Origin: Microgenomates group bacterium
GTDB taxonomy: Bacteria; Patescibacteriota; Microgenomatia; UBA12405
Reading direction: 5' to 3'
Assembly: GCA_049303675.1 (NCBI GenBank)
Contig: JBAQNJ010000001.1
Span: 278,994 to 342,993 of the forward strand
DNA length: 64,000 bases
Both the position numbers and the translations under genes were made by a program. The notes below the pieces were generated by a model, which was not told the origin of the DNA, did no database searches, and was given only the letters and a program-made list of their open reading frames with translations. This document shows, piece by piece, positions 20,246 to 39,678 of the stretch (position 1 is its first letter; each line of letters begins with the position of its first letter).

Positions 20246-20512
20246 ATGCAAATAATGTATTATGTCTATATTTTAAAAAGTTTGGTTGACGGAAAAATTT
20301 ATACAGGTTTTACTTCTGACCTAAAGCACCGATATCAACAACATTTAGACGGAATGGTTTTTTCGACCAAAAATCGTCGACCACTTAAACTAATTTATTA
20401 CGAAGCTTTTTTATCAAAAATAGATGCAGCAAAACAAGAAAAGTATCTAAAGTCAGGTGGTAAAGCAAAAATTGATTTAAAAACAAAAATAAAAAATAGC
20501 TTAGAACTTTGA
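20246..20512 (+). CDS. GIY-YIG nuclease domain protein
   Basis: MYYVYILKSLVDGKIYTGFTSDLKHRYQQHLDG...KYLKSGGKAK; GIY-YIG with conserved R/H and E-bearing region. Confidence 0.65.
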   Translation: MQIMYYVYILKSLVDGKIYTGFTSDLKHRYQQHLDGMVFSTKNRRPLKLIYYEAFLSKIDAAKQEKYLKSGGKAKIDLKTKIKNSLEL

Positions 20513-20518
20513 TATAAT
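20510..20518 (+). promoter_or_regulatory. Extended -10 (TGaTATAAT) for tRNA-Tyr
   Basis: tgatataat 14 nt upstream of tRNA 5' end; identical copy at 20196. Confidence 0.45.
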
Positions 20519-20531
20519 TTGGCTCAGTAAC

Positions 20532-20603
20532 CCGGTGATAGCAAAGCGGTTATGCGTCGGTCTGTAAAACCGATCTAGGTAGGTTCAACTCCTACTCACC
20601 GGA
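20532..20603 (+). tRNA. tRNA-Tyr(GUA), class-I-like (short variable loop, C1:G72)
   Basis: Manual cloverleaf: acceptor CCGGTGA/TCACCGG, anticodon stem TCGGT/ACCGA loop CTGTAAA (anticodon GTA), V-loop TCTAG, T-arm GTAGG-TTCAACT-CCTAC, discriminator A. Confidence 0.7.
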
Positions 20604-20611
20604 CATAATTT

Positions 20612-20663
20612 TAGCGACGGTCTGTAACCCCGCCGCTGCGGGGCAACTCCTACTCACCGGACT
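20612..20663 (+). repeat. Partial duplicate of tRNA-Tyr 3' part (anticodon loop to acceptor 3') with same GC hairpin replacing V-loop/T-stem
   Basis: gcgacggtctgtaa[ccccgccgctgcgggg]caactcctactcaccgga vs tRNA gcgtcggtctgtaaaaccgatctaggtaggttcaactcctactcaccgga. Confidence 0.7.
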
Positions 20664-21297
20664 CATTTTTTAATCTCTCTAATATTTTTGGTGTTATCGG
20701 CCATAAAGTAGCCGCAGTATAATCCGCGTATTCTTCTGGTGTCATTTCTGATAAAGTATTTTTTTTCCCTTCAGGAATAAAAAACCAATCAAAATAATAA
20801 CCAAGTTTTGTAATTCGTAATTCATTTGCCGCTGTACCTCTTGTTCTGACACCTTCCGAAATTACTTCACCATTAGGTATAGCCAAGGCAATTCCATAAC
20901 CAAAATAAATAGTTCGATTTTCAGTACCATTCAATTTGTCTAACAGTTTTTGAGTATTAGTTACGTCCGACTCGTATCGATTGTCTACTCCCAGTATCAT
21001 TTTGTCGTTGCCTGTTAATTCTTTTTTGGATTCTGTCCCTGGCCAGCCACCAAGTGCTTCAAATTCAATTCCTCTGTCAAAAGAAATCGACATCAGACCA
21101 GATGCTCTGCAGTAAGCCCTAGCCTTCAATTCACTATCACCTACAAAGCTACCCGAATTCTCCTCAACTTCAATATCTATCCCCAGTTCTTTAGGGTTTA
21201 CAAATCTATACAGCTTATCAAGTCCCAACTTTCGACAAGAATATAAAAATGGTTCTACCTTTGATCTATTTGTCGTCGCAATTAGTAGGTCTTTCAT
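20650..21297 (-). CDS. Ham1/RdgB-family non-canonical purine NTP pyrophosphatase (divergent)
   Basis: Manual alignment to RdgB: LLIATTNRSKVEP~VVLATGNVGKVRE; EENSGSF..ELKAR; LGGWPGTES; GYYFDWFFIPEGKKNTLSEMTPEE~[24 protein letters not shown]. Confidence 0.55.
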   Translation of the reverse strand: MKDLLIATTNRSKVEPFLYSCRKLGLDKLYRFVNPKELGIDIEVEENSGSFVGDSELKARAYCRASGLMSISFDRGIEFEALGGWPGTESKKELTGNDKMILGVDNRYESDVTNTQKLLDKLNGTENRTIYFGYGIALAIPNGEVISEGVRTRGTAANELRITKLGYYFDWFFIPEGKKNTLSEMTPEEYADYTAATLWPITPKILERLKNESGE

Positions 21298-21308
21298 ACA
21301 CGCTTTAA

Positions 21309-21818
21309 CTACCTTATTTTACACGAATATTTTATTAGATCCTTCGTGATTTTATTTACATCGACCTTTTTTCCATCAACTTTGAAAAAAGCCAAATATC
21401 TAAGCCCAGCTCCCGGTGCTTCACTCATCATTATTTTTAAAACTATTTCTCCAATTTCTTTAGTACTAGTTACTTTCTTCTGACTCAGAATCAACTTTTC
21501 TTCAACCTCATCGAATATTTTCTTTGATGTAATTCCTGAATCTCCTCTATCTATTTTCTTTTGTCCGACGACTACATGGTAAATGGATGAGTATAATTTT
21601 GCTCCAACATATTTAACTCTTTTTCCAGATCTTTTAACGACTGTAATATGTCCTAAATCAATCTTCTCGTGAGTTGTAAACAAAAAATCACATTTTAGAC
21701 ACTTCCTTCTTCTCCATATTTGAATTCCTTTATTTGTTGGCCTTGAGTTCGTCACCTCAATTTGTTCACTTCCACAATTCGGACAAAACATACCCATATA
21801 TTGACATATAATAGCCAT
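21309..21818 (-). CDS. nrdR: Transcriptional repressor NrdR (zinc ribbon + ATP-cone)
   Basis: MFCPNCGSEQIEVTNSR...RRRKCLKCDFLFTTHEKID...VVKRSGKRV; true start probably internal Met (MFCPNCG, about 21791). Confidence 0.8.
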   Translation of the reverse strand: MAIICQYMGMFCPNCGSEQIEVTNSRPTNKGIQIWRRRKCLKCDFLFTTHEKIDLGHITVVKRSGKRVKYVGAKLYSSIYHVVVGQKKIDRGDSGITSKKIFDEVEEKLILSQKKVTSTKEIGEIVLKIMMSEAPGAGLRYLAFFKVDGKKVDVNKITKDLIKYSCKIR

Positions 21819-21855
21819 TTTATCAATTTATAATTTACTTTTGAACTAAAATAAG

Positions 21856-22296
21856 TTGTCATATCTGTCAACAATATGTTCTATCAAATCGATCCTGTTT
21901 GACATTAAATATAAATATCAAATGACAAGGGAAAATATAATCAACATCACAATAAGTGAGCCTTCCCAAATATGTATTATTGTTAGGCAAGCCAACAAAT
22001 TCATCGCTTCAAAACCTTATCTGGGTGTTCATACCATTGGAGCCAGTGCAAATGGTGTAATTTCGTACCCTGTCGGCAACATCGAAGGTTCGTATCTAAA
22101 ACCAACTGTCAAACCAGTCACAATTAGTCCGCCGTTTAGAATTTCCTTATCACAAGATACCAATATTGTTGTTAGTTTTCAGGCGAAAGGCGAATTCTCA
22201 CCAGAACCATCACAAGACTGGATGCTCGACCGACTTAAGAACCAATTTACCAGTGTCATAGCCGACTCACATCCAAAATTAAGACAGTCCACTTAA
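21856..22296 (+). CDS. Hypothetical protein
   Basis: 146 aa ORF, no recognisable motif. Confidence 0.3.
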   Translation: MSYLSTICSIKSILFDIKYKYQMTRENIINITISEPSQICIIVRQANKFIASKPYLGVHTIGASANGVISYPVGNIEGSYLKPTVKPVTISPPFRISLSQDTNIVVSFQAKGEFSPEPSQDWMLDRLKNQFTSVIADSHPKLRQST

Positions 22297-22315
22297 ATTA
22301 TCAGTTAAATTTAAT

Positions 22316-22618
22316 ATGAAAAATATCGTCGTCGACAAGCCAAGTGAAATAAGTCAAATTGCCTATTTCCTTAATCATTCAGATATCTTTAGCTCCGTTA
22401 ATATCAGTTCAATTAGTGCCAATCAAAATTATCTCAAATGGTCCGCTCCTTCAACAGATTATCCTTGCATTTATAATTCATATTATCTATTTTCACCATT
22501 CAAAATAGTATTGTATCCACATCCTTTTGTTGTTCCAACTGATGAAAGTGGCGAAAGTAAAATTATTCTTGACCAAGTAAAAACAAAATTAATGGAAGCC
22601 ATTCTCAGGATAATCTGA
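22316..22618 (+). CDS. Hypothetical protein
   Basis: 100 aa ORF downstream, same strand. Confidence 0.3.
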   Translation: MKNIVVDKPSEISQIAYFLNHSDIFSSVNISSISANQNYLKWSAPSTDYPCIYNSYYLFSPFKIVLYPHPFVVPTDESGESKIILDQVKTKLMEAILRII

Positions 22619-22635
22619 TTTTGCTATAATCATTT

Positions 22636-23685
22636 GTGCAGATTTCTACCTTAATCCTCGAAAATTTTCGCTCTTACACACGACGTGAACTAAAACTTGA
22701 TTCAAAAACTAATTTAATTTTGGGACACAATGGTGCCGGCAAGACTAATATTTTAGAAGCTATTTATTTCCTGTCCTGTGGTAAAAGTTTTCGTAGTAGT
22801 TCCCTATCGCAATTAATCAATTGGAACAGTACTTACACTAGTGTTCAGGGTCAACTTGATGACCATACTCTCGAGGCTCAGCTAATCAAGAATGCTGCCA
22901 AAATGTCCCTTAGTCGTCAGTTCAAACTCGACCAAGTGATCAAAACTCGTCCCAAATATCTCGGCACTATGAAATGTGTTGTTTTTGAGCCAGAGGATAT
23001 TCGACTAGTTAATGGTTCACCCACCCGTCGTCGCGATTATCTCGATAGTGTTTTTGCTACCACCGAGTGGCGTTATGCTGGTGCCCTGTCCCAATTTCAC
23101 CGAGCTCTTAAGCATCGCAATGAATTGCTAGATCAAATCAGGGACGGCAAAAACCAAAAATCAGAGTTATTTTACTGGGATCAGTCTCTTATTAAAAACT
23201 CAGAAATAATTCACGATTTCCGGCAAAAATTTATACAATCAGTCAATCAATTTTTTCAGAACCATTCTTTCACCGAAATAAAAACTTTGTTTTTAACCTA
23301 CCACCCCTCAGTTCTGACTCAAGAAAAATTAGAACTCAATTATTTCCACGACCTCAATTCCGGATTTACCCAAGCAGGAATTCATCGTGACGATTTTACC
23401 TTCAATAATTCAATTTTCTCCACTGAAGACAAGAATTTAGCTTATTGGGGGAGTCGTGGTCAACAGAGACTAGCAGTCCTAGCTCTCAGACTTGCTCAAA
23501 TAAATTATCTAGAGGAAACCTATTCTCAAAAGCCAATTTTACTTCTCGACGATATTTTTTCCGAGCTCGATCCCGAGCATCGCCAGTTAGTTGTCAACAT
23601 CTGTCAAACGTACCAAACCATTTTTACCTCCGCCGAGGACAATATTTCTCACTTTTTACCTCAAGCTAACCAAATTAGTCTCTAA
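22636..23685 (+). CDS. recF: DNA replication and repair protein RecF
   Basis: NFRSYTRREL...ILGHNGAGKTNILEAIYFLSCGKSFR Walker A; C-terminal LLLDDIFSELD signature. Confidence 0.85.
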   Translation: MQISTLILENFRSYTRRELKLDSKTNLILGHNGAGKTNILEAIYFLSCGKSFRSSSLSQLINWNSTYTSVQGQLDDHTLEAQLIKNAAKMSLSRQFKLDQVIKTRPKYLGTMKCVVFEPEDIRLVNGSPTRRRDYLDSVFATTEWRYAGALSQFHRALKHRNELLDQIRDGKNQKSELFYWDQSLIKNSEIIHDFRQKFIQSVNQFFQNHSFTEIKTLFLTYHPSVLTQEKLELNYFHDLNSGFTQAGIHRDDFTFNNSIFSTEDKNLAYWGSRGQQRLAVLALRLAQINYLEETYSQKPILLLDDIFSELDPEHRQLVVNICQTYQTIFTSAEDNISHFLPQANQISL

Positions 23686-23710
23686 AGATATTGTATAATC
23701 TGACTAAATT

Positions 23711-23929
23711 ATGAAAATATCACCAATTATGGATTCAGATGAAGCCACTGCCCAGCAAAGGCTGAAAGAAATATATCGACGTCAAAGAAATGACCTTTCT
23801 ACTGAAACTAGTCTTGAGGATTTACGAACCGAACTAACAATTACCACCAGATTATTGGAACTAAAATGTCGAATTCAATTGAGCAACATGGAAAATATTG
23901 TTGCCGCTTCGGTCGAGGCACAGATGTAA
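23711..23929 (+). CDS. Hypothetical small protein
   Basis: 72 aa ORF between recF and rRNA. Confidence 0.3.
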   Translation: MKISPIMDSDEATAQQRLKEIYRRQRNDLSTETSLEDLRTELTITTRLLELKCRIQLSNMENIVAASVEAQM

Positions 23930-24119
23930 AACTATTTACCCCCTCCACAAACGCAATATTTGTTCTATAATACCTACACTGTCTTTATCAAGACAGGTTT
24001 TTATTGTACATTAACATTCAACCACTCTATTTTTTTAAAGCCACGGCTGTTAGTATCAGAGAGATGACACCGATAATTCGGTATTTCTTTTTTGAAAATC
24101 ATCCCGATCATTCGGGATT

Positions 24120-25617
24120 TGTACTAAGAGTTTGATCGTGGCTCAGGGTAAACGCTGGCGATGTGCCTAAGACATGCAAGTCGAACGGGATTCATTATCT
24201 TCACAAAGTTTCTAATTTTAGTGATTTTGTGAAGATAGTGAGTTTAGTGGCGAACGGGTGAGTAATGAGTACGAACGTACTCTCAAGCGGAACATAGCCC
24301 ACCGAAAGGTGGAGTAATTTTCCATAGTCTCGCAAGAGTAAAGATGCAAATCACTTGAGAAGCGGCGTACTTGCCACCAGCTAGTTGGTAGGGTAACGGC
24401 CTACCAAGGCTATAACGGCTAACGGCTCTTAGCGGAGAGTCCGTCACAATGGGACTGAGACACGGCCCATACTTCTACGGAAGGCAGCAGTTAGGAATCT
24501 TGCGCAATGGACGAAAGTCTGACGCAGCGACATCGCGTGAAGGATGAAGGCCCTCGGGTCGTAAACTTCTTTTATTGTGCCATGAAGGCATTTTGAATCA
24601 ACAGCTACTAACTACGTGCCAGCAGTCGCGGTAATACGTAGGCTGTAAGCGTTACCCGGTTTTATTGGGCGTAAAGCGTCTGTAGGTGGTTTTGTAAGTC
24701 TTGTTTCAAAGACCCCAGCTTAACTGGGGGCAGGGGCAGGATACTGCAAGACTAGAGTGATATCGGGGTTACTGGAATTTTTAGTGTAGGGGTAAAATCC
24801 GTGGATACTAAAAAGAACACCAAGCGCGAAGGCGGGTAACCAGGTATTTACTGACACTCAGAGACGAAAGCTAGGGTAGCCAATCAGATTAGAGACCTGA
24901 GTAGTCCTAGCTGTAAACTATGTATGTTAATTCTCTGTAATTTATTATGGGGGATGTAAGCTAACGCGTTAAACATACCGCCTGGGGAGTATAGCCGCAA
25001 GGCCGAAACTCAAACGAATTGGCGGGGAGGCGCACAACCAGTGGAGCATGTGGTTCAATTCGATACGAAGCGATGAACCTTACCTGGGTTTGAAATGTAT
25101 CTGCAAACCCCCAGAAACGGGGGAATCCTTAGAGGGTGATACACAGCTGTTGCATGGCTGTCGTCAGCTCGTGACGTGAGTTGTTCTCTTAAGTGAGGTA
25201 ACGAGCGCAACCCCCATCCGGTGTTATTGTGTCACCGGAGACTGCCTAGCATTATTTTGTTAGGAGGAAGGAGGGGACGACGTCAAGTCAGCATGATGCT
25301 TATGTCCAGGGCTACACACATCCTACAATGAGGAAGACAATGGGTCGCGAAACCGCGAGGTGGAGCCAATCCCACAAACTTCCTCTCAGTTGGGATTGCA
25401 GGCTGAAACTCGCCTGCATGAACCCGGAATTGGTAGTAATCGCGCATCAGCAGCGCGCGGTGAATACGTTCTCGCCTCTTGCACACACTGCCCGTCAAAT
25501 CAGCAAAGTTGAGGGCACCTGAAGCTTGGCCTTTGGCCGAATCAAGGTGAATTCAGCGATGAGGGTTAAGTCGTAACAAGGTATCTGTACTGGAAGGTGC
25601 AGATGGATCACCTCCTT
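24120..25617 (+). rRNA. rrs: 16S ribosomal RNA
   Basis: AGAGTTTGATCGTGGCTCAG at 24127; GTGCCAGCAGTCGCGGTAATAC; 3' end GGATCACCTCCTT at 25605-25617. Confidence 0.95.
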
Positions 25618-25721
25618 TGAGGATTTATCCGTATTCCAATTTATTGGATATCGGATCATGAATCGAACTCTTTCTGGTACTAACATTTTTGGCTTTAAAT
25701 AAAATAGTGGTTGAATAAAAT

Positions 25722-25752
25722 AAAAATCCCCCAGTAATGGGGGATTTTTTTT
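25722..25752 (+). terminator. Intrinsic terminator immediately after 16S
   Basis: aaaaatcccccagtaatgggggattttttttg hairpin + T-run about 105 nt after 16S 3' end; no 23S or tRNA follows. Confidence 0.7.
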
Positions 25753-25762
25753 GCAATAAATA

Positions 25763-25981
25763 TTATTTGGTTTTAGGTTTAAGATACTGAATTGATATTC
25801 CACCTGGAGTCAATTCGTCTTTCTTTTCCACTCTCTGCCATCCCGCACTACTAAATATCAAAGCCACTGCTGGTTCTTCAACTGGAGATACATAAAAAAC
25901 ATCCCTATCCTTTTCACTTAGAGCTAACCTCGCTCTTGAAACTAATGAATCTTCGATCGCTTGTGCTATTTGTTCTGTCAT
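25763..25981 (-). CDS. Hypothetical small protein
   Basis: 72 aa ORF convergent on 16S terminator. Confidence 0.3.
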   Translation of the reverse strand: MTEQIAQAIEDSLVSRARLALSEKDRDVFYVSPVEEPAVALIFSSAGWQRVEKKDELTPGGISIQYLKPKTK

Positions 25982-26049
25982 ATTGAACTTATTCTCTCCC
26001 TCTCTCTTCTATAAGTCAAATTTTCCGATATTTTTAGTACAATCAACCA

Positions 26050-26573
26050 TGAATCTAATTTTTATCTATGGCCCTCCGGCCACTGGCAAACTTACAGTTG
26101 CTAAAGAATTGTCAATATTGACCAATTATCCTGTCTTTCATAATCACTTAACTTATGATTTAGCATTTTCATTGTTTAAGGGTTATAAGTTTGGAAAATT
26201 AATTGAACAAATTCGGCTTGATGTTTTTCAACACGCCATTAATCAAAAGTTGTCAGGCTTAATTTTTACAGTCGCCTATGGATATGGCTCTGACGATCAA
26301 TTCGTAAAATCAGTTATAAAATTAATCGAAAAATCAGGTAATAAAATTAATTTTGTCCAGCTAAAATGTTCTCGAGAAGAATTACATGATCGTGTCAATC
26401 AGGACTCTCGTCAACAATTTGGCAAGGTCAAAGATGTCCAAAATTTAGACGAATTATTAAACACCAATGACTACTTTACTCCTATTTCATTCGTCAAAAA
26501 TCTAATAATTGACAACACATCTCTCGACCCAAAAACTGTCGCCGAAAAAATTATGAATGAGTTTGCAATATAA
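26050..26573 (+). CDS. P-loop NTPase/kinase (AAA_33-like)
   Basis: MNLIFIYGPPATGKLTVAKEL Walker A at probable start (ORF track begins 25983). Confidence 0.6.
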
Positions 26574-26588
26574 TCCGACTAACCTTCT

Positions 26589-27311
26589 ATGCCTCCATTT
26601 GTTACCAAACTAAAAATCGAGCCGGACAAACTTCCCCAACACATTGCCATTATTATGGACGGCAACCGTCGTTGGGCCAAACAAAACAATTTTGACCCCA
26701 GCAAAGGCCACGAGGCAGGCGCTGCCAATCTCCAAAAAATTGTCGAATATTGTCGCGATATTGGCGTCAAACATTTGACAGTCTATGCCCTATCTACCGA
26801 AAACTGGCGACTCCGTTCCCCCCTCGAAGTCAGGGGATTATTTAATTTATTGATCAAGGTAGTCAAGACCAAGGCCGAGGAATATCAGCGTTCCGGCATC
26901 AAGTTTTTTGTCCTCGGCAATTTTCAAGCTTTCCCTCACAAGGTCAAAGAAGCAATCAAAAAAATATTATCTCTGGCCATAGTTAAGGAAAAAATACAGT
27001 TCAATATCGCTCTCAATTACGGCGGTCGTGATGAAATCGTTCATGCTCTGAAGAAAATTATTCAGGACAAAGTTCCTGAAAACAAAATAGACGAAAATTT
27101 AATTAGCAGCTATCTCTATACCAAAAATCAGCCCGATCCTGATCTCATTATTCGTCCGGGCGGTGAATTTAGACTTTCCAATTTTCTTATTTGGCAAATG
27201 TCCTATGCCGAACTATTTTTCACCAATATTCTCTGGCCAGATTTTACCCCCCGTGAACTCGAAAAAGCCATCTACTGGTACCAGCAGCGCGACCGCCGCA
27301 TGGGAAAATAA
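26589..27311 (+). CDS. uppS: Undecaprenyl pyrophosphate synthase
   Basis: HIAIIMDGNRRWAK...ALSTENW...FLIWQ motifs. Confidence 0.9.
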   Translation: MPPFVTKLKIEPDKLPQHIAIIMDGNRRWAKQNNFDPSKGHEAGAANLQKIVEYCRDIGVKHLTVYALSTENWRLRSPLEVRGLFNLLIKVVKTKAEEYQRSGIKFFVLGNFQAFPHKVKEAIKKILSLAIVKEKIQFNIALNYGGRDEIVHALKKIIQDKVPENKIDENLISSYLYTKNQPDPDLIIRPGGEFRLSNFLIWQMSYAELFFTNILWPDFTPRELEKAIYWYQQRDRRMGK

Positions 27312-27313
27312 AT

Positions 27314-28249
27314 CTATATATTTATTTTCCACTTTGGCGGGTAAAAATACTTAATCAAATTGTTTGCTGGTTGATATCTCGTTTTTATTCGTACTCGATT
27401 ACTTACCAACTTTGGAAATTTTACTCGACAGTATTTATCAGTTTCACAAAACCATCCCTGACAATCAATCGCACTCATAGGCCTGCCTCCCAGATTTTTG
27501 AAATCAATTCCTAGTCTCCGAAATTCTTTTTCCTGATTTTCCACCATATATCGTATGATATCCTCATCACTCTTTCCAGATGTATTTACAAAACATTTGG
27601 CAATTCCTCTGAGTGCCCCAGGCCCAGCTACAGTAAAGTCATTTTCATCAAAATCAAATATTTCGGAATAATTAAAATCAATCGCCAACTGATACGCCAT
27701 AAAATTTCCCAGTAGAGGAAAACCTTTCAAACCTTCATACAATTTTTTCAAAGAATTTGCGCTCAAAATTAACTGTGTATTTTTCTTATTTCCAAAAATA
27801 AAATTCAACAAAGCTAGGTGATTTTCGTGTTTTTTATCAAAACCAAATATTTTGTTCGCACACAAAATAAATGCATTGCCGTATATTGGTTTATTTTCTT
27901 TTATCTTTTCTAATATTCTTGCGTATCTATCAGCACTAAAATTTTTTAGGCTAATTTCTCCCAGATCTAACTCTAACTGCTGCCATGTTTCAATTTTATT
28001 GAGTAGTCTAAATAACAAAATTCTAAAAAGAGTATCCTCTGCCGTAAATTTATCAGTGTAGATTACGTTTTTAATCAAAAATTGGGAAACTCTGTCACTT
28101 GCTCGGTAGACATTACAAAATTTATAACTTTGGTAAATTGGATCATCTGTCAAATGAACAGTTTTATTATTTAATTTACGAAAAAATATTTCTTGTCGCT
28201 CAGCTGCTGTTTTCCAATAGGTGTCATAAACTTTTTGCCGAACTCTCAT
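27314..28249 (-). CDS. Hypothetical protein
   Basis: 311 aa, no motif I can name with confidence; last gene of minus-strand pilin-like operon. Confidence 0.4.
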   Translation of the reverse strand: MRVRQKVYDTYWKTAAERQEIFFRKLNNKTVHLTDDPIYQSYKFCNVYRASDRVSQFLIKNVIYTDKFTAEDTLFRILLFRLLNKIETWQQLELDLGEISLKNFSADRYARILEKIKENKPIYGNAFILCANKIFGFDKKHENHLALLNFIFGNKKNTQLILSANSLKKLYEGLKGFPLLGNFMAYQLAIDFNYSEIFDFDENDFTVAGPGALRGIAKCFVNTSGKSDEDIIRYMVENQEKEFRRLGIDFKNLGGRPMSAIDCQGWFCETDKYCRVKFPKLVSNRVRIKTRYQPANNLIKYFYPPKWKINI

Positions 28250-28254
28250 TTTAT

Positions 28255-29106: not shown

Positions 29107-29107
29107 A

Positions 29108-32171: not shown

Positions 32172-32175
32172 TGTT

Positions 32176-32218: not shown

Positions 32219-32234
32219 GATGTTATAATTAACC

Positions 32235-32942
32235 ATGCCTCGAATCAAAGATGTTGATAATGTCGCTCCTGACGATTTAATTACTTCCCCAAAAACTAAT
32301 TTAACTATAAATACAAATCCAATTATAAAATCACCCAACAAGTTGGTCGATACAGAGACTTTAAACGACAAGGTTTACTCAATTTTTGGTCACACCAAGT
32401 CCTCATTTTCCTCTGCCCTAGTTTTCCCTCATGTCTTTAGTTTTGCCGAGCAGGACGACGATGAAAAAATTCTCGTCGCTATGCGTCCCCATTGGTTCAC
32501 CAATGTTTCTTGGATTTTCACCTCTATTTTTTTATTTCTCCTTCCTAGCCTAATCCATTTTGTTCCCCTTATCAACACCCTCCCGTGGAACTACCAGTTT
32601 GTCATTACCCTCTCTTGGTATCTAATCGCCATTGCCTACACTTTCGAGAAATTTATGGGCTGGTATTTCGATGTCTATATTATTACTGACCGTCGGGTCA
32701 TTGACATCGACTTTATCAATCTCCTTACCAAAAAATACGCCGAAGCAGATATATCCAAGATACAAGATGTCTCCTCGAAGGTTTCTGGTGTTAGCCAGAC
32801 ATTCTTCAATTATGGCTCAGTTCTCATCCAGACCGCCTCCGAAGTCAATGAATTGCACTTTGACAAAGTTGCCAATCCCGAAAAAATTGTCAAAATATTA
32901 CAGGAATTAGGCGAGTTAGAAGAATCCAAACACCATGAATAA
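32235..32942 (+). CDS. Membrane protein with bacterial PH (bPH_2/DUF304-like) domain
   Basis: Two TM helices then YFDVYIITDRRVIDIDF...GSVLIQTAS pattern. Confidence 0.5.
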   Translation: MPRIKDVDNVAPDDLITSPKTNLTINTNPIIKSPNKLVDTETLNDKVYSIFGHTKSSFSSALVFPHVFSFAEQDDDEKILVAMRPHWFTNVSWIFTSIFLFLLPSLIHFVPLINTLPWNYQFVITLSWYLIAIAYTFEKFMGWYFDVYIITDRRVIDIDFINLLTKKYAEADISKIQDVSSKVSGVSQTFFNYGSVLIQTASEVNELHFDKVANPEKIVKILQELGELEESKHHE

Positions 32943-33150
32943 TCTCAATCTCTATTTTTTACTGGCCCAAAAATTTTCTTTTGTTCTCGGTTCTATTATT
33001 TATCTTGTTTTTGCCCTAATTGTGGTGAAGCAAACTACTATGATGAGTAAAAACGTTATCGACAAATTCAATCCTGTTCTGATCTCCATTGCCTATCTCC
33101 ACCTCGCCTTTTCCATATTTCTCGTCTTCCTTACTTTAGTAATACTCTAA
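32935..33150 (+). CDS. Small membrane protein
   Basis: 71 aa, two hydrophobic segments, overlaps upstream gene stop. Confidence 0.3.
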   Translation: MNNLNLYFLLAQKFSFVLGSIIYLVFALIVVKQTTMMSKNVIDKFNPVLISIAYLHLAFSIFLVFLTLVIL

Positions 33151-33189
33151 CAAAGATTATCCCCCTCTTTCGTCAATATAGTTTGTACT

Positions 33190-33234
33190 TCTCCCTTTTT
33201 CAAGGGGAGATGCGGCGAAGCCGAGAGGGGTTTT
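33190..33234. repeat. Hairpin repeat family copy 3 (long form)
   Basis: tctccctttttcaaggggagatgcggcgaagccgagaggggtttt then tagtat 8 nt before ATG 33250. Confidence 0.8.
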
Positions 33235-33249
33235 GTAGTATCATTAATC

Positions 33250-35052
33250 ATGCACTTTATTTGTCGATCTTTCCTCGGTCAAGCACAGCCCAATTCTTGG
33301 TCTCAGTATTGGGAGAACGAACCAGAGGATCAGGCTCTCGCTGCCAATCGTGGCCATCTTTTTGCCCTGCTCAATCTTGTCGTTGATCAAAATATCCCCA
33401 CTAGCGATATCGGTCATCGGCTTATCAATGAACTCAATCAACAATATTTTTCTTCATCCCTTGATCCAATTCCCGTTTCACTGACGCAGGCTATCCAGAC
33501 AGTTGTCAATCAACCAGCCTACAACTTACTCGACATTTCTCTGACTATCGCCATTATTCACCAGTCCCAGCTCTATCTGGCTATGTACAACTCCGGTTAT
33601 GTTTTTCTCGTTCGCCAGCATCAGTTCTCTCAGCTTCTTAGCGGCACCACCTCGAAGGTCAATCTCGTCTCTGGCCTGATTGCCCCCGATGACATTATCT
33701 TTATTTGCACTCAAAATTTTTATGACAATGCTACCCTAAATGGTATCAAGAGTTACCTGTCATTAGGCAAAACAGAAGACATTGAGGAGAGCATTATGGC
33801 CGACATTTACACTTTTACCGAGCAGGCCACCCTCGCTTCCCTCCTCATCGGAATTCACCCCGATGTCGATACCCCTTCCCCTCTTCCTGACAGCCCCGAG
33901 CCTAGTTCTCCCCCAGTTTCTGAGGTTATTTCTCCTCCCGATGTCTACATTTCCCACCTCGACTCTACCGCCATCAAAAATCGTCGTTATTTCAACATCA
34001 TTATTGCCATCATTTTGATTTTAGCCCTGTCTGTCAGTGTTTTCTTTGGCAATCAGCGTAATCAAAAAAATAATTTACAAACCAAATATCAGACCCTCAA
34101 ATCAGCCTATCAGGCCAAAATGAGTAGTGCTCTAGCCACCAAAAATATCAATCTCGAAGAGGCCCAGAAGATTGCTGCCGAGGCCAAAAGTATCGCCCTC
34201 GAATTGCAGTCTCTCAAGATAAATTCAGCCGAATCATCCCAGTTATTAGCTGATGCCCTCAATATACTGTCCCAAACTGGTTCTGCCGACAGTTACTCAC
34301 CCCAAGACTACTACGACACCACCGATCTCAACTCTGCTGCGAATTATTCTCATCTTATTTCTGCCAAAAACTTTTTATATCTCCTCGATCAGACTTCAGG
34401 TCGTCTCGACCGCCTCGATCTAGCCGCCAAAAGCAAACAAAAAATTATCCAAAATGATCAACTAAAAAATGCCACCGATATCGCCGAAAATAATGGTCAA
34501 CTCTACCTCCTCATCGACAAAAAAATCTATCAAGTTAGTGGCACTTCCCTTAATTCAGTTATTGATATTCCCACCGACATTCCCGACTTCACCTCCGGCA
34601 AAATCCACTTTTGGAACAGTAGTCTCTATCTTCTTGGCACCAACATTTGGAAATTCACCCCCTCAGGCACCTCCTTTTCTCAGGCCCAAGTCTGGCTCAA
34701 GGATGGCAACAATTTACCACCCACTAGTTCCTCATTGGCCATCAATGGCCAAGTTTGGGTCTTAGCCAAGTCAGGGGATCTTTCCTCCTACACTCGGGGT
34801 ACCCGCGATGCCACCCCGCCCCATATTGCCACCAATTTATCAGCCGCCGATCACTTAGTTGTTTCTCTTGACTCAGAAATTATTTCCTTTGTCGATGGCA
34901 GTTCCGTTGTTTATATTTATCACAAATCTACCGCATCCGCCTCCAAATACAATTTTGGCAATCGTCAGATTCTTAGTACCGCTCTCGATTCTACTAACAA
35001 TCGTCTTTTAGTTCTCTGTGCCGACAAAAAAATCTACCAAATTAAATTATAG
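33250..35052 (+). CDS. Large hypothetical protein: cytoplasmic N-domain, single TM, Ser/Pro-rich linker, beta-rich C-domain
   Basis: 600 aa; TM RRYFNIIIAIILILALSVSVFFG; SPLPDSPEPSSPPVSEVISPP linker. Confidence 0.45.
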   Translation: MHFICRSFLGQAQPNSWSQYWENEPEDQALAANRGHLFALLNLVVDQNIPTSDIGHRLINELNQQYFSSSLDPIPVSLTQAIQTVVNQPAYNLLDISLTIAIIHQSQLYLAMYNSGYVFLVRQHQFSQLLSGTTSKVNLVSGLIAPDDIIFICTQNFYDNATLNGIKSYLSLGKTEDIEESIMADIYTFTEQATLASLLIGIHPDVDTPSPLPDSPEPSSPPVSEVISPPDVYISHLDSTAIKNRRYFNIIIAIILILALSVSVFFGNQRNQKNNLQTKYQTLKSAYQAKMSSALATKNINLEEAQKIAAEAKSIALELQSLKINSAESSQLLADALNILSQTGSADSYSPQDYYDTTDLNSAANYSHLISAKNFLYLLDQTSGRLDRLDLAAKSKQKIIQNDQLKNATDIAENNGQLYLLIDKKIYQVSGTSLNSVIDIPTDIPDFTSGKIHFWNSSLYLLGTNIWKFTPSGTSFSQAQVWLKDGNNLPPTSSSLAINGQVWVLAKSGDLSSYTRGTRDATPPHIATNLSAADHLVVSLDSEIISFVDGSSVVYIYHKSTASASKYNFGNRQILSTALDSTNNRLLVLCADKKIYQIKL

Positions 35053-35080
35053 TAGTTTTTTTGTACAACTTTGATATAAT

Positions 35081-35575
35081 TTGATTATGCCAGTTGATAA
35101 AACCCATCGAGAAATATTAGACCATGCCATCAACATTGCCTATCAAAACGCCACCAAATTCACTGCTCGCCAGCCAAATAGTGACTTCGCTACCACCTCT
35201 GCAGAAATAGATAGTTCTCGGGGTAAAGCCCATTTGTCAATTGGTGTCACTCGAACACAGCAAGGGCTAGATACCGAAGTCAGTCTTCAGCCAGCAGGTA
35301 GTGGTAAAGGCAATGACTGGAGCTATCGACTTGTATCCCAAACCGTCTGGCCAGATATCTACGGTCAACTAGTTGGAACTATGGACCATTACCCAGAAAC
35401 ACAAGGCATGACTGCCTCAGAAGCATTGGAAGTTTTACAGAAGACCTCACCCATAGAAATATCTTTTCCAAGGCGAGAACAACATTCATCTGAGGAAATC
35501 AGCTTTTTTCTACTGAGGGGAGATGGCAGAAGTGTGATTGACGATCTAGCTCGAATGGTCCGACCCCGTCGATAA
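35081..35575 (+). CDS. Hypothetical protein
   Basis: 164 aa ORF. Confidence 0.35.
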   Translation: MIMPVDKTHREILDHAINIAYQNATKFTARQPNSDFATTSAEIDSSRGKAHLSIGVTRTQQGLDTEVSLQPAGSGKGNDWSYRLVSQTVWPDIYGQLVGTMDHYPETQGMTASEALEVLQKTSPIEISFPRREQHSSEEISFFLLRGDGRSVIDDLARMVRPRR

Positions 35576-35577
35576 AA

Positions 35578-36006
35578 TTATCGTTTTTTTCTATCCAATA
35601 TTACGTCAATATATCCCGTTTTCACCCCTTCTGCTTGAGGTCTGCCCACGCCCATCATCAAAAAATACATTTTTTCTTCGCTTGCCGGCATGTCTTTTAT
35701 CCAAGCATCAGTTTTAGACATCGGTTCGATTATTTGCAAGTGGCCCACACACCTACTATCAGGATTTTCTCCTCTAGGTGTCAAATAAGTTATATTTTTT
35801 AGTGCTCGAAGTTGTTCTAGCGTCAAGCCTTCCTCTTCCCCTAACATAGTTTCAAAATTTTTTTGAGTATGTTCGGCAATTTCTTTATGAAAATCACTTG
35901 CCCTAGGTATTAGTATGAGTGCAAAAATATCCTTATTGACTGCATCCATCATTTGGGCTGAAGCTTTCAATTTCTTATAATACTCTCTAAATTTCTCGTC
36001 ATCCAT
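35578..36006 (-). CDS. Hypothetical protein
   Basis: 142 aa ORF. Confidence 0.35.
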   Translation of the reverse strand: MDDEKFREYYKKLKASAQMMDAVNKDIFALILIPRASDFHKEIAEHTQKNFETMLGEEEGLTLEQLRALKNITYLTPRGENPDSRCVGHLQIIEPMSKTDAWIKDMPASEEKMYFLMMGVGRPQAEGVKTGYIDVILDRKKR

Positions 36007-36047
36007 ATCATTATTATATCAATAAAGCCCATAATATACAATGTTTT

Positions 36048-36089
36048 TCTCCCTTGTCATAGGGAGAAGCGGCTGTGCCGAGAGGGATT
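36048..36089. repeat. Hairpin repeat family copy 4 (long form)
   Basis: tctcccttgtcatagggagaagcggctgtgccgagagggatt. Confidence 0.8.
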
Positions 36090-36155
36090 GAAATATGAGA
36101 TAATCACTTAGTTTGTTTTATTCATAAATCATATTTCTTATTTCATACACCAACT

Positions 36156-36566
36156 ATGAGGTACTTCAATCGAGATTCACTCGACTACGAGTTCAAAGAC
36201 AAGTACGAAGCAGGCCTCGTCCTCACTGGTTCTGATGCCAAATCTCTCCGGACTCAGGGAGTCCTCTTCAATGGCTCCAAAATCGAGATAATTGATGGTA
36301 TTCCTACAGTTTTCAATCTGACTATCGAGCCCTACAAGTATTCCCAAAACCAATCGATCGACACCACTCGGGAACGAAAAATCTTATTATCGCAGAGGGA
36401 AATAGCCAAGTTAATTAGTCTCCGCAATCAAAAATATATGATCATCCCCATCAGTATATTTTTGAAGCACAATTGGTTCAAAATGGAAATTGGTGTCGGC
36501 CGCAAGCTCCGCAAATACGAAAAAAGAGAAAAAATCAAAGCCAAGGATTCTCTACGTCACTCCTAA
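36156..36566 (+). CDS. smpB: SsrA-binding protein SmpB
   Basis: DKYEAGLVLTGSDAKSLR...KILLSQREIAKL...MEIGVGRKLRKYEKREKIK. Confidence 0.85.
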   Translation: MRYFNRDSLDYEFKDKYEAGLVLTGSDAKSLRTQGVLFNGSKIEIIDGIPTVFNLTIEPYKYSQNQSIDTTRERKILLSQREIAKLISLRNQKYMIIPISIFLKHNWFKMEIGVGRKLRKYEKREKIKAKDSLRHS

Positions 36567-36567
36567 A

Positions 36568-36804
36568 CTAGCCAATTTTTCCCTTTTCTGTCTGAACTAG
36601 GGGACCAGTCACTTCCAATTTTTGTCGACCTCTTAGTACCGCAAGTTCTGATTTTTTCACTACCGTCCCAATCCTCACCTGATTATCATCAGTTCCATAG
36701 ACCACTGTATCATCACCCACAGTTTGTATTTCTTTCACCAAAATACGCCCGCTATTTGTCGGCCAGATAAATGGTTTTTCCACTATATTGTTATCATTTG
36801 ACAC
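36568..36804 (-). CDS. Hypothetical small protein
   Basis: 78 aa ORF. Confidence 0.3.
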   Translation of the reverse strand: MSNDNNIVEKPFIWPTNSGRILVKEIQTVGDDTVVYGTDDNQVRIGTVVKKSELAVLRGRQKLEVTGPLVQTEKGKIG

Positions 36805-36882
36805 ATCGCTAATCTATCATATTATTGTCATTTTTTCTCCTTGTTGCTGGCCAATGCCCCTAGTTTGTAGTAACCTATATGT

Positions 36883-38211
36883 ATGTCCAAATACATCATT
36901 GACGGTGGTACACCACTCTCCGGTGAAGTTTTTATCCGTGGCGCCAAAAATGCCAGTTACAAGCAAATCATTGCCTCCCTGCTGACCAGTGATTCCGTCG
37001 AACTGACCAACATTCCTCAAATTTCCGACGTTCACATTACCACTAGTATTGCCCAAAACTTAGGCGTTTCTGTCGAAGAGGTTGGCGAGCATGGCCTGAT
37101 TATCACCGCCAAAAATATCACCCATTCGGTCATTCCCAGTGGTACCGGCGAGAAATCACGCACTTCTTTTATATTTATTGGTCCCTTGCTAGCCCGTACC
37201 GGTAGCATTACCTTTCCTTCTCCGGGAGGCGACAAATTGGGGGAGCGGCCCCTTGATCGTCTTTTTGCCTGTCTGACTCAGATGAATGTCCAGATAGTTG
37301 CCGCCGAGGATTCCTATACTCTCACTACTTCAGGGCTTGTCGGTACTGATTATACTTTCGAAAAGCCTTCACACACCTCCACCGAAGTTGTCATCATGAC
37401 TGCTTGTCTGGCTGCAGGGGAGACAATTATTCGCCATGCCGCCTGCGAGCCCGAAATCGACGACCTCATCCACTTACTCAATCAAATGGGTGCCCAGATC
37501 AAGCGAGATACTACCGAACCTTCCACTATTTATATTACTGGTGTCCAGTCACTCCATGGTGCTACTCATCAGGTTATCTCCGACCGCAATGAGGCAGTCA
37601 CTTTTGCTTGTGCTGCTCTCAGTACCCGTGGTTCCATCAGTATTTTGCGCCTCAACCCTCAGATAATTGCCACATTTTTAGATACCATCGAAAAAATGGG
37701 AGCGCAGGTCAATCGGGGCAAGGATGAAGTTAAGATTAGCTGGCACCAGCCTCTCTCTGCTATCGATATTGCCACCGGACCAGAGCCGGAATTTATGACT
37801 GACTGGCAAGCAGTTTTTAGTCTAGTTCTTACTCAGGCCGTCGGGGTTAGTAGTGTCATCGAGCGGGTTTTCCCTTCTCGTTTCCAACACATCCAATTGC
37901 TCAACCAAATGGGAGCCAAGACCAAATTTTTTCAGCCAGATATAGCCGATCCTGCCGCTTATTACCACTTCAATCCTAGTTCCGATCGCCCTGAATTTTT
38001 TCATGGCGTTACCATCTATGGCCCCACCAAATTACAGCCAGCCGATATGAAAATCTCCGATCTCCGAGCCGGTGCTACCTCCACCCTCGCCGCTCTCACT
38101 GCTCAGGGCACATCTACCATTGAGGGTGTCGAGTTTATCGAGCGCGGCTACGAAAAATTAGCCGATAGATTGGCTTCACTAGGTGCTCGCATCAAGTACA
38201 TCAAGACTTAG
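36883..38211 (+). CDS. murA: UDP-N-acetylglucosamine 1-carboxyvinyltransferase
   Basis: MSKYIIDGGTPLSGEVFIRGAKNAS..., 442 aa EPT family. Confidence 0.9.
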   Translation: MSKYIIDGGTPLSGEVFIRGAKNASYKQIIASLLTSDSVELTNIPQISDVHITTSIAQNLGVSVEEVGEHGLIITAKNITHSVIPSGTGEKSRTSFIFIGPLLARTGSITFPSPGGDKLGERPLDRLFACLTQMNVQIVAAEDSYTLTTSGLVGTDYTFEKPSHTSTEVVIMTACLAAGETIIRHAACEPEIDDLIHLLNQMGAQIKRDTTEPSTIYITGVQSLHGATHQVISDRNEAVTFACAALSTRGSISILRLNPQIIATFLDTIEKMGAQVNRGKDEVKISWHQPLSAIDIATGPEPEFMTDWQAVFSLVLTQAVGVSSVIERVFPSRFQHIQLLNQMGAKTKFFQPDIADPAAYYHFNPSSDRPEFFHGVTIYGPTKLQPADMKISDLRAGATSTLAALTAQGTSTIEGVEFIERGYEKLADRLASLGARIKYIKT

Positions 38212-38455
38212 TGCTATAATTTTCCATATGTCCAAAAAATCAACAGCATCTCTCGAAATTGAATTACCTCAAGACACTATTACTGCGATCAAAGCCTATG
38301 CCTCCGAGAAACACCTATCTTTCAACAAAGCTACCCTCAGGTTTATCAGTATTGGTCAACAATTCGAACAATTGGCCAGTGAATCAGGAGTGACTTTTCA
38401 CACCAAGCTGCCTGCCAGTCGTCATCCTCATCCATTTGGTCGCAAATTTCCCTAA
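38183..38455 (+). CDS. Hypothetical small protein
   Basis: 90 aa ORF overlapping murA end. Confidence 0.25.
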   Translation: MLASSTSRLSAIIFHMSKKSTASLEIELPQDTITAIKAYASEKHLSFNKATLRFISIGQQFEQLASESGVTFHTKLPASRHPHPFGRKFP

Positions 38456-38859
38456 CCAATTTTTGTTGTTAGTCCATATATCGGCAATATTATTGCCACC
38501 ACCAACAGTCCCACTACTAGTCCGATCAACAGCATTGCCAACCATTGTAATTCACTAATCATCAAATCCTTCGAGCTAATCATTGAACCTTCCTTGTATT
38601 TTAGTAGTCTCTCATCAAACTTAATATCCATAAAATTTGGTGAGAATATGTATCCCGCAAAAATAATCAATCCTACTACCACATAATTAATGTACTTCTC
38701 TACCAAAATAGTTATTGCCAGTTTATCCACCCCCATTTCAGTATACAGTCCCGTTAGCTTTGGCATTACCACATACGACATTAATCCCAGTACTATCGCC
38801 ATTACTATTGATACTATGGCCACCTGCAACTTTTGCCCTTTCAAAATATCCCTTGCCAC
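38452..38859 (-). CDS. PilC/GspF-like (T2SS-F domain) C-terminal fragment
   Basis: 135 aa; C-terminus LLIGLVVGLLVVAIILPIYGL resembles PilC/GspF terminal helix; only one partial domain. Confidence 0.4.
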   Translation of the reverse strand: MARDILKGQKLQVAIVSIVMAIVLGLMSYVVMPKLTGLYTEMGVDKLAITILVEKYINYVVVGLIIFAGYIFSPNFMDIKFDERLLKYKEGSMISSKDLMISELQWLAMLLIGLVVGLLVVAIILPIYGLTTKIG

Positions 38860-38892
38860 TTCTTTTTTTATATAAGCTGGTTACATAGACTA

Positions 38893-39132
38893 TTATACAA
38901 AATGTTTCTTGGCAAAAGCTATTCCCGACCCTGTTTTAAGATATTTCTCAAATTTATATGCGATATATTTGTCATTAAATGCAAAATACACCTTTACTTT
39001 CCAGGGTTTATAAAATTGTGTTGCGGGTACTTTTCCTTCATTGTGCATTTTAATCCGCTCTTTTAGGTCTTCAGTACATCCTACATACCTCCGTCCGTAC
39101 TTATTTGTAAGTATGTAAACATAAGAAAACAT
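38893..39132 (-). CDS. GIY-YIG nuclease domain protein (paralog of 20246..20512)
   Basis: MFSYVYILTNKYGRRYVGCTEDLKERIKMHNEG...KYLKTGSG. Confidence 0.65.
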   Translation of the reverse strand: MFSYVYILTNKYGRRYVGCTEDLKERIKMHNEGKVPATQFYKPWKVKVYFAFNDKYIAYKFEKYLKTGSGIAFAKKHFV

Positions 39133-39206
39133 TACAAATTTTATTACAAATGGAGGACTTTGTCCTCCGGAGCAGAGAGATTATTTGACAATTTAGACAG
39201 TTGGCG

Positions 39207-39246
39207 TATACGAAAAACGCGCCTTTGTATACACAAAAGCGCGCGC
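39207..39246 (-). terminator. Intrinsic terminator after tmRNA candidate
   Basis: Minus strand GCGCGCTTTTGTGTATACAAAGGCGCGTTTTTCG: long GC-clamped hairpin + T5. Confidence 0.6.
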
Positions 39247-39678
39247 AGGAGGAGATGCTCGGTATTGAGCCGAGGTCCAAAGTGGACTATAAAAAACGTC
39301 TACAAGCTTAATTTACTTTATCCTACACTTTCAACAACTAAAGTAAACGAAAAGTGTTGAAATGTCGATTATTGAGGGCATTACCCCTCTCTTAAATCCA
39401 CGATCTAATCGAGAAGATCGGGACAGCATTCTAGTTTAATTTACACTAGCTAGTCTTCTCTAGAAAAGGGGACTAACTAATGGATGATTCTGTTTAGGCA
39501 AGAGCCCAAACAGGAGCCTTAGAAGCTAGAGCGCCTTTTACAGCGTTTGCAACTTTGGTTAAATCAACACCAAAAGTATTTTTGGCATGTTTGTTTTTGA
39601 CCCTGTTTAACGACTCAATGGATCAAAGTCGGCTTGCGGTTTTTTAAGGTACTCACCTTGTCGATGCAATACATCTCC
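39247..39678 (-). ncRNA. ssrA: tmRNA (ssrA) candidate
   Basis: Minus strand: 5' GGAGATG-TATTGCATCGACAAGG (cf. GGAUUCGACGGG), internal tag ORF GCA AAC GCT ... TAA = ANAVKGALASKAPVWALA*, 3' GGAC-CTCGG-CTCAATA-CCGAG-CATCTCC (T-arm + acceptor strand complementary to 5' GGAGATG) then terminator; smpB 2.7 kb away. Confidence 0.55.

Follow-up and report, generated by a model that had tools for sequence, protein, structure and literature searches.

Small GIY-YIG nuclease genes with GC-rich hairpins in and beside the stable-RNA genes of a Microgenomates group bacterium

Two GIY-YIG genes beside tRNA-Tyr and tmRNA

We analysed a 64,000-nucleotide (nt) stretch of contig JBAQNJ010000001.1 from a Microgenomates group bacterium (the whole stretch is hereafter called the window), which contains two small genes for GIY-YIG nucleases, here named g1 and g2. 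An initial annotation had taken them for paralogues lying next to stable-RNA genes, and had suggested endonucleases that home to such genes or ride in them. The g1 gene, listed there as an 88-amino-acid (aa) open reading frame (ORF) at 20246-20512 on the + strand, is real, as is g2 (38893-39132, - strand, 79 aa). In homologues and in the NCBI protein, g1 starts at the second Met, at 20255, rather than at the ATG at 20246, giving a gene at 20255-20512 and a product of 85 aa. Both proteins consist of a single domain, and their paralogy was borne out: they are 47% identical over 66 aa (E 2e-14) and match the Pfam GIY-YIG family PF01541 (g1, E 8e-15, 55.3 bits; g2, E 5.5e-14, 52.7 bits) above its curated cut-off of 22.6 bits. 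No other Pfam domain was found in the 85 aa of g1 or the 79 aa of g2, and a search of the 64-kb window for a third GIY-YIG ORF gave none. We collected 766 homologues of g1 and 247 of g2, and found that the catalytic positions of g1 (Y5, Y16, R26, H30 and E62) are invariant across 28 sequences. The closest relative of g1, P0002, is 86% identical, and its gene table shows that the Exo_endo_phos neighbour and the overall gene order are kept.

The AF2 model of g1 (pLDDT 93) has strands at residues 2-9, 15-20 and 44-52 and consists of a bare GIY-YIG core with one C-terminal helix of 14 residues. No separate DNA-binding module (NUMOD, IENR1, zinc finger or helix-turn-helix) was found in g1, and TIGR01453 scored far below its cut-off. 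The profile comparison with the UPF0213 and GIY-YIG families that had been suggested earlier gave PF01541 above cut-off, as stated, with UPF0213 structures nearest: by sequence, the closest solved relatives are the UPF0213 proteins 1ZG2 (E 4.8e-15) and 1YWL (E 1.2e-9), followed by SLX1. Foldseek agreed with this order, returning UPF0213 1ZG2/1YWL, the Slx1 nuclease domain and the I-TevI catalytic domain; the Slx1 nuclease domain fitted the g1 model with a TM score of 0.71 and a root-mean-square deviation of 1.6 Å. This UPF0213/Slx1-like placement is a ranking by similarity and not a curated family assignment.

Both genes lie directly beside stable-RNA genes on the same strand, as had been noticed. 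The stop codon of g1 is 19 nt upstream of an intact tRNA-Tyr. The g2 start follows by 114 nt a gene for transfer-messenger RNA (tmRNA; 39247-39678, - strand), which was only a candidate in the initial annotation and proved genuine: it matched the full Rfam model RF00023 with 82.5 bits (gathering score, 47 bits) and contains a plausible tag frame, ANAVKGALASKAPVWALA plus stop. A promoter-like site for it lies at 39724-39696. ARAGORN did not detect this tmRNA despite the Rfam score and the normal tag frame, nor the one at a related locus, L170 (related loci are given as L numbers throughout).

The interval between tmRNA and g2 (39133-39246, - strand) forms a leader with two hairpins, the first (39217-39244) being GCGCGC..GCGCGT followed by a T-run and the second (39152-39168) GGAGGAC-AAA-GTCCTCC. 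We found that this leader is conserved at L170, the locus of the closest g2 homologue (P0122, 70% identity), which likewise lies 115 nt downstream of a tmRNA. Its homologue, a TTCGC..GAAG.. / GGCGGAC-RAA-GTCCGCC leader, recurs behind tRNAs throughout the g2 family. The g2 cassette thus adjoins the tmRNA 3' end, and the nuclease gene follows this conserved leader; hairpins are on the upstream side of g2 only, whereas g1 has them on both sides.

The g1 cassette lies within an ancestral tRNA-Tyr gene

At the g1 locus, the pieces of one tRNA-Tyr gene enclose a second, intact one, and all features lie on the + strand. On the left is an extended -10 promoter, TTGATATAAT (20194-20203), now upstream of g1, which is an exact 10-nt repeat of 20509-20518; the flank at 20176-20203 aligns with the promoter flank of an uninterrupted tRNA-Tyr at L173. 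After the leader CAGTAAC comes the left arm, tRNA-Tyr nt 1-10 (CCGGTGATAG, 20215-20224), whose position matches the 5' end of the tRNA at the empty site and which belongs to an exact 17-nt repeat (20208-20224 and 20525-20541). A GC hairpin, GTCCCGC-CGCT-GCGGGAC (20224-20241), replaces nt 11-16 in the D-loop, and a relic of nt 17-24 (GGTTATGC, 20242-20249) follows, overlapping the alternative ATG at 20246. The TGA stop of g1 falls within the inner copy of the promoter (TTGATATAAT, 20509-20518), which serves the intact tRNA-Tyr(GTA) (20532-20603/4), a replacement copy within the insert that was called by ARAGORN, scored 59.9 bits in Rfam and has a cloverleaf as its minimum-free-energy fold. Behind it lie a relic of nt 23-36 (GCGaCGGTCTGTAA, 20614-20627), overlapping the upstream relic by 2 nt (GC), and a second hairpin, CCCCGC-CGCT-GCGGGG (20628-20643), in place of nt 37-54. 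The right arm (20644-20662), comprising nt 55-72 and one further base, overlaps the 3' end of a convergent gene for a Ham1-type NTP pyrophosphatase (20650-21297, - strand). It is fully identical to 20586-20604, within a 27-nt repeat that begins at 20586 and ends at 20612. The outer pieces sum to exactly one tRNA-Tyr, split at nt 24/25 with the 2-nt overlap and with hairpins for nt 11-16 and 37-54. The duplicated promoter, of the form TGnTATAAT, was read by eye from the sequence; a simple, strict sigma-70 -35/-10 scan at g1 called none.

The 14-nt core shared by the hairpins, CCCGCCGCTGCGGG, occurs twice in the 64 kb, in the left hairpin and at 20629. We ruled out the g1 hairpins as terminators, because they lack a T-run and the terminator scan was empty. 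Another hairpin that resembles these two lies at 60087; it is a normal terminator, placed before tRNA-Trp, and is unrelated. A group I intron or an intron-encoded endonuclease was also rejected: no Rfam intron family matched in the window, and the functional tRNA-Tyr is contiguous.

Relatives of the neighbouring Ham1 gene provided the empty site. Its closest homologues, 82% and 66% identical, lie on the contigs L173/L174 and L177/L178, each of which carries one uninterrupted 73-nt tRNA-Tyr(GTA) of the same type abutting the Ham1 stop codon, and neither a GIY-YIG ORF nor a hairpin was found on these contigs. Compared with them, the window carries an insert of 419 bp (20225-20643) in place of nt 11-54 of the ancestral tRNA-Tyr, containing the two hairpins, g1 and a complete copy of the promoter and tRNA-Tyr. 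The inner promoter copy is preceded by the last part of the nuclease ORF, and the outer left flank is homologous to the L173 flank. Since the outer flank matches L173 and the right arm overlaps the end of Ham1 as in the relatives, the outer pieces are the ancestral tRNA-Tyr. These results show that the g1 cassette was inserted in an ancestral tRNA-Tyr gene, and that occupied and empty alleles of a conserved target gene are present among relatives. With a full second tRNA-Tyr and its promoter in the insert, the host retained this essential tRNA. The g1 locus is identical in the NCBI assembly GCA_049287145.1 and in two independent Logan assemblies, indicating that it is not an artefact of assembly. 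The suggestion that such genes ride in RNA genes thus holds at g1, while strict homing, that is, cleavage of the empty allele followed by copying, is something that we infer.

The tRNA-Tyr(GTA) of the window is of an unusual kind for a bacterium. Bacterial tRNA-Tyr normally has a long variable arm, and a short one is the archaeal and eukaryotic type. The copy in the window is 72-73 nt long; its variable arm is short, its first pair is C1:G72 and position 73 is A73, and the same short type is present at L173 (2040-2112) and L177 (3141-3213). Because these empty-site relatives carry it too, the short form is native to the Microgenomates/Shapirobacteria lineage. Other loci from the candidate phyla radiation (CPR), the ultra-small bacteria among which this genome falls, have a tRNA-Tyr of 85-87 nt (L009, L010, L047, L060, L130 and L165).

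Neighbours, architectures and hairpins across related loci

The initial annotation had proposed a census of the distance between GIY-YIG paralogues and stable RNAs. We ran it across two sets of related loci, 80 genome loci for the g1 family (79 counted) and 80 metagenome loci for the g2 family, and found a very strong association that is specific to the strand. A same-strand tRNA or tmRNA lay within 300 nt in 32 of 79 g1-family loci, compared with 2.4 expected (P ~1e-27), and in 55 of 80 g2-family loci, compared with 4.8 expected (P ~7e-48), where expectations were computed from local tRNA density and the loci are not phylogenetically independent. In many of the remaining g2-family loci the ORF was too near the contig end to judge. 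Adjacency was more than 10-fold above expectation across the 159 loci, with 87 neighbours on the same strand and 2 on the opposite strand, one in each set. Secondary paralogues found independently in those loci gave a similar picture, about 7 of about 17 touching a same-strand tRNA. The neighbours include at least 18 tRNA species (Trp, Cys, Tyr, His, Leu, Pro, Ala, Asn, Lys, Glu, Arg, Met, Gln, Gly, Ser, Asp, Val and Ile), and tmRNA occurred four times, in the window and at L170, L121 and L077. This census disposes of the idea that the window, with its two cases only, reflects coincidence or an annotation artefact, namely two short ORFs lying near RNA genes by chance; the Pfam matches, the homology of g1 and g2, the empty sites, the pairing of hairpins with clades described below and the identity of the locus in three assemblies speak against it as well.

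Three architectures (A, B and C) were distinguished, each belonging to one protein clade. In clade A, of which g1 is a member, the nuclease stop codon directly adjoins, or overlaps, the start of an intact tRNA, at offsets of -10 to +9; upstream is a hairpin-substituted copy of the same tRNA species, and a 3' piece often follows the intact tRNA. Clade B loci have, behind an intact tRNA or tmRNA, between one and four palindromes (core GCTNAGC) and then the ORF, and the tRNA 3' end and hairpins sometimes recur beyond it (L018, L071). In the g2 family, the intact tRNA or tmRNA is followed by a leader with TTCGC at the RNA 3' end and the hairpin GGCGGAC-RAA-GTCCGCC, of which the g2 leader in the window is an AT-shifted version, and then by the ORF. 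A fourth clade, without tRNA neighbours, has an inverted repeat of its own, CACCCTGT..ACAGGGT.

We then compared hairpin types with nuclease clades. The type A hairpin was present at 13 of 17 clade A loci, none of which had another clade's type. All 13 clade B loci had the GCTNAGC type, and one also had the motif of the tRNA-less clade. The latter motif occurred at 15 of 30 loci of its own clade, with one instance of type A, and the g2-family hairpin, under the strict definition GGAC-N3-GTCC, at 23 of 80 loci, with six instances of type A. In background chunks of 600 nt, each type was seen in about 1%. Nuclease clade and hairpin type are therefore almost perfectly specific to each other, which is the pattern that recognition of a cognate hairpin by each nuclease would produce. 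When 10 loci were scanned permissively against Rfam, neither leaders nor pseudo-tRNAs matched a family; apart from tRNAs, the hits were noise below the threshold, such as sX4 (30 bits; gathering score, 70).

Many relatives show signs of mobility. In 28 loci the ORF is flanked by orphan fragments of the tRNA next to it, and in clade A the same junctions, at about nt 10/11, 23-25, 37/38 and 54/55, are seen repeatedly in tRNAs for Trp, Cys, Tyr and His. At L008, L009 and L096, the broken and intact copies of the same isoacceptor differ in sequence, and at L096 the hairpin that replaces nt 38-55 of a broken tRNA-Ser encloses an intact tRNA-Ser between its arms. L004 and L084 encode an identical nuclease, P0006, with one 3' hairpin fragment at L004, and three in tandem and an assembly gap at L084. 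The repeated unit at L084 (2834-3090) is 57 nt long, comprising agagtt, tRNA-Trp nt 28-37, the hairpin and nt 55-73, and its three tandem copies run across the gap. Frameshifted ORFs were found at L010, L109, L124 and L145. In a neighbour-joining tree, which for proteins of 85 aa is weakly resolved, nucleases beside Trp, Cys and Tyr tRNAs are intermixed, as are those beside Lys, Glu, Arg, Met and tmRNA. Finally, a g1-family ORF of the tRNA-less clade lies inside an insertion in a 16S rRNA gene (L036); this insertion (4820-5450), in a member of the Magasanikbacteria, is near E. coli positions 450-480, and the inverted repeat CCCCACACCTTTTA / TAAAAGGTGTGGGG encloses it.

A related observation concerns annotation. 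At L032 (5334-5426), a 93-nt 'tRNA-Arg(tcg)' called by ARAGORN is a full-length copy of tRNA-His with two arms replaced by GC hairpins, which indicates that hairpin-substituted pseudo-tRNAs can enter tRNA annotations.

Matches on viral contigs were found for only seven loci, one with a tRNA neighbour, which argues against a phage vector. One 16.3-kb contig classed as viral, IMGVR_UViG_3300027819_000412 (L179, L185), carries two such ORFs: one of the g1 family, beside tRNA-Lys and roughly 150 nt from a contig end, and one of the g2 family, roughly 500 nt from the opposite end. A survey of horizontal gene transfer lists GIY-YIG domain proteins among the genes exported by Patescibacteria (PMC12455944).

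Interpretation and comparison with known systems

We consider it probable, at roughly two chances in three, that g1 and g2 are the sole proteins of two lineages of minimal selfish cassettes, composed of a nuclease and its hairpins and located in or beside stable-RNA genes, always on the strand of the adjoining RNA gene. A cassette measures about 0.35-0.45 kb and holds one GIY-YIG gene and lineage-specific GC-rich hairpins, and homologous cassettes occur before or behind at least 18 tRNA species and tmRNA, with one inside a 16S rRNA gene. Residence of selfish cassettes in stable-RNA genes is the firmest part of this proposal; we are much less sure of a specific mechanism of cleavage and copying. 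By analogy with the Ssn nucleases discussed below, each nuclease may recognise its own hairpin as folded single-stranded DNA (ssDNA) and cut nearby, and it might also nick tRNA DNA that forms a cloverleaf. Breaks at hairpins or tRNA DNA would be repaired by copying a cassette-bearing template, with RNA-gene sequence as the homology, and this repair would both spread and rearrange the cassette. Expression may depend on the promoter of the RNA gene; at g1 the orphaned ancestral promoter now faces the nuclease gene. The clade A ORF would have no stop codon of its own and read into the duplicated target, which would account for a stop that always touches the tRNA or, in the window, the promoter copy.

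The closest known system is the recently described Ssn type of hairpin-directed ssDNA nucleases. SsnA of Neisseria is a 94-aa single-domain GIY-YIG protein with essential residues Y6, Y17 and E64; it binds the hairpin repeat NTS only as ssDNA, cuts a few nt upstream, and does not bind RNA, and its gene typically lies between two repeats, homologues having hairpin variants of their own (PMC11893778). The role of Ssn outside Neisseria was stated to be unknown, and tRNA is unmentioned in that paper (Chenal et al., Nat Commun 2025, PMC11893778). The cassettes resemble Ssn in having a single domain of about 80-95 aa (g1 85, g2 79), in catalytic spacing (Y5/Y16/E62 here, Y6/Y17/E64 in Ssn) and in GC-rich inverted-repeat hairpins of lineage-specific sequence that flank the gene (hairpin-gene-hairpin at g1). 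The class A hairpin, A GTC-CCGC..GCGG-GAC-C, also resembles the NTS core CCCGCG..GCGGG. What sets them apart from Ssn is that the hairpins stand in for arms of a broken tRNA and that the cassettes are tied to stable-RNA genes (tRNA, tmRNA or rRNA). At L021, a CPR GIY-YIG gene with a type A hairpin of its own is preceded, at a distance of about 80 nt, by a match to the Neisseria-type Ssn motif, TGTCATTCCCGCGAAGGCGGGAATCTGC (2812-2839, - strand).

Three further systems share parts of the arrangement. T4 SegB is also a free-standing GIY-YIG gene among tRNA genes, with presence/absence polymorphism at a conserved RNA-gene locus, and spread through break-induced copying with flanking markers would be expected in both cases (PMC2330249). 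However, Seg proteins have about 200 aa and a DNA-binding domain whereas g1 and g2 are bare catalytic domains, the cassettes lack a phage context (the seven viral-contig matches), and SegB has no split tRNA gene, replacement copy or hairpins. Insertions in CPR rRNA genes encode homing endonucleases; GIY-YIG ORFs are sparse among them, and homing was judged not to be their means of spread (Brown et al. 2015; PMC11270868). The host group and residence in stable-RNA genes are the same here, and L036 lies in a 16S insertion with a long inverted repeat, but PMC11270868 concerns rRNA only, never mentions tRNA and does not report a replacement-gene architecture. REP/BIME-RAYT and IS200/IS605 likewise combine a small nuclease gene with flanking cognate hairpins, recognised there as folded single strands; they differ in having an HUH rather than a GIY-YIG fold and covalent strand-transfer chemistry, and no dispersed repeat family of the REP/BIME kind was seen within the 64-kb window. 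A survey of Patescibacteria tRNA introns does not cover cassettes of this kind, and in the literature searched, which included few subscription journals, we found nothing linking small GIY-YIG genes to bacterial tRNA or tmRNA genes. The kind of element, Ssn-like or free-standing GIY-YIG selfish genes, is known; the new aspect is the specialisation on stable-RNA genes and the split-and-rescue arrangement at tRNA-Tyr.

It seems unlikely that the cassettes are passive cargo, placed by integrases, by transposases acting in trans or by hot-spot recombination at tRNA genes, with hairpins that serve as terminators or processing signals. The 3' ends of tRNA and tmRNA genes are classic integration sites, reportedly described by Williams in 'Traffic at the tmRNA gene', and this explanation gains from att-like repeats of the tRNA 3' end in some class B and C loci (L018, L071, L135), a repetition of the RNA 3' end on the far side that integrase islands and prophages share, and from the resemblance of the first g2 leader hairpin to an intrinsic terminator. 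However, no integrase or transposase lies in or beside the cassettes: g1 and g2 units were searched for tyrosine and serine recombinases without success, each unit of about 0.4 kb having one ORF and housekeeping neighbours, and the units are 10-100 times smaller than integrase islands. Class A cassettes, moreover, insert at the 5' side of a tRNA or inside it, with a duplicate of the whole gene, and their junctions fall within the tRNA at several structure-defined positions, rather than at the 3' end alone. Most hairpins lack a T-run, and passive transport does not predict that hairpin type tracks nuclease clade.

We regard as quite improbable a host function, in which the proteins would be housekeeping or repair factors of the structure-specific UPF0213/Slx1 kind, co-transcribed with strongly expressed RNA genes (to act, for example, on R-loops or hairpins), and the adjacency a conserved operon. 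The nearest solved relatives, the strict co-orientation and the preservation of the tmRNA-g2 arrangement in the closest relative are consistent with it. Against it, the adjoining tRNA species differs between close homologues, relatives with the corresponding locus lack the gene, single loci hold several copies, and broken tRNAs, tandem fragments and the four frameshifted ORFs (L010, L109, L124 and L145) are marks of selfish elements.

An RNA-level system is very improbable. Here the pseudo-tRNA or leader would be a functional RNA (a processing signal, mRNA stabiliser, guide or scaffold) that works together with the protein, its unpaired tRNA-derived segments pairing with tRNA genes or their transcripts. 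The hairpin substitutions do leave the remaining tRNA stretches without pairing partners, the class C leader folds into three conserved helices that take in the tRNA 3' strand and show some covariation, and co-orientation implies co-transcription. However, the stems are nearly pure Watson-Crick with no clear G:U excess, loop orientation varies (AGCG in some cases, the complementary CGCT in others), RNA is not bound by Ssn (PMC11893778), no Rfam family matched, and a protein of 85 aa leaves little room for RNA-guided chemistry.

Several results weigh against the selfish-cassette reading itself. A large, mostly non-CPR clade of the g1 family has no tRNA neighbour. The lack of association that the initial annotation had named as evidence against its proposal is thus seen for this one clade only, and the association is a property of particular cassette lineages rather than of every small GIY-YIG gene. 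With 10 and 19 nt, the arms left at g1 are too short to support RecA-type homing from one species to another, so that spread across lineages needs another route or longer initial homology, and the inner and outer tRNA-Tyr are almost identical, which makes the rescue copy a local duplicate and not an imported gene. At the g2 locus no repeat of a tmRNA fragment was found, and the filled/empty comparison comes from the g1 site alone. Unlike Ssn targets, the hairpins do not match the published SRM pattern (Ssn, cd10448), HGTCWYN(0-2)YYVSBRHN(0-5)WNVSBRGN(0-2)RNCYNB: a regular-expression search gave no match in the window and a near-gene match in only 1 of 79 and 1 of 80 loci. Nor are the hairpins dispersed in many copies like the Neisseria NTS; the 64-kb window has two, both at g1. 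Lastly, counts of G:T versus A:C pairs in the stems, a comparison meant to separate RNA or single-strand from double-strand structure, did not lean one way (3 versus 6, and 12 versus 5).

More tentatively, and with doubts that exceed our confidence, the cassettes might form a widespread but unrecognised class of minimal mobile elements that act as a natural 'cleave-and-rescue' drive. The nuclease would read folded ssDNA, best in its own hairpins and to a lesser degree in the cloverleaf arms of tRNA and tmRNA genes, and would break an essential RNA gene at structure-defined positions; the cassette would then be copied in with an intact rescue copy, leaving a dead copy that keeps hairpin-replaced arms. 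If this were true, the Ssn-type nucleases would gain a general role in biology. In bacterial genomes few 'hypothetical nucleases' are as common as single-domain GIY-YIG proteins, and the selfish-cassette reading suggests a role for the Ssn type, in which stable-RNA genes provide home, promoter and homology. The g1 locus illustrates how an element can be tolerated inside an essential single-copy gene through the spare copy that it carries, and CPR bacteria, with their tiny genomes, tolerate many insertions in both rRNA and tRNA genes. For annotation, hairpin-substituted pseudo-tRNAs are called as odd tRNAs and assemblies break at such repeats. Each pair of nuclease and hairpin is also a candidate sequence-specific ssDNA nuclease tool.

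Other features of the window were recorded. A complete 16S rRNA gene of 1499 nt (24120-25618) has no insertion, and with no 23S rRNA in the 64 kb the rRNA genes are unlinked here. A SAM-I/IV riboswitch at 46493-46599 has a score equal to the Rfam gathering score of 41.1 bits. Upstream of tRNA-Trp, adjacent ORFs of 87 and 78 aa (59430-59936, - strand) were judged by eye to be a putative toxin-antitoxin pair, with a RelE/ParE-like toxin and a ribbon-helix-helix-like antitoxin.

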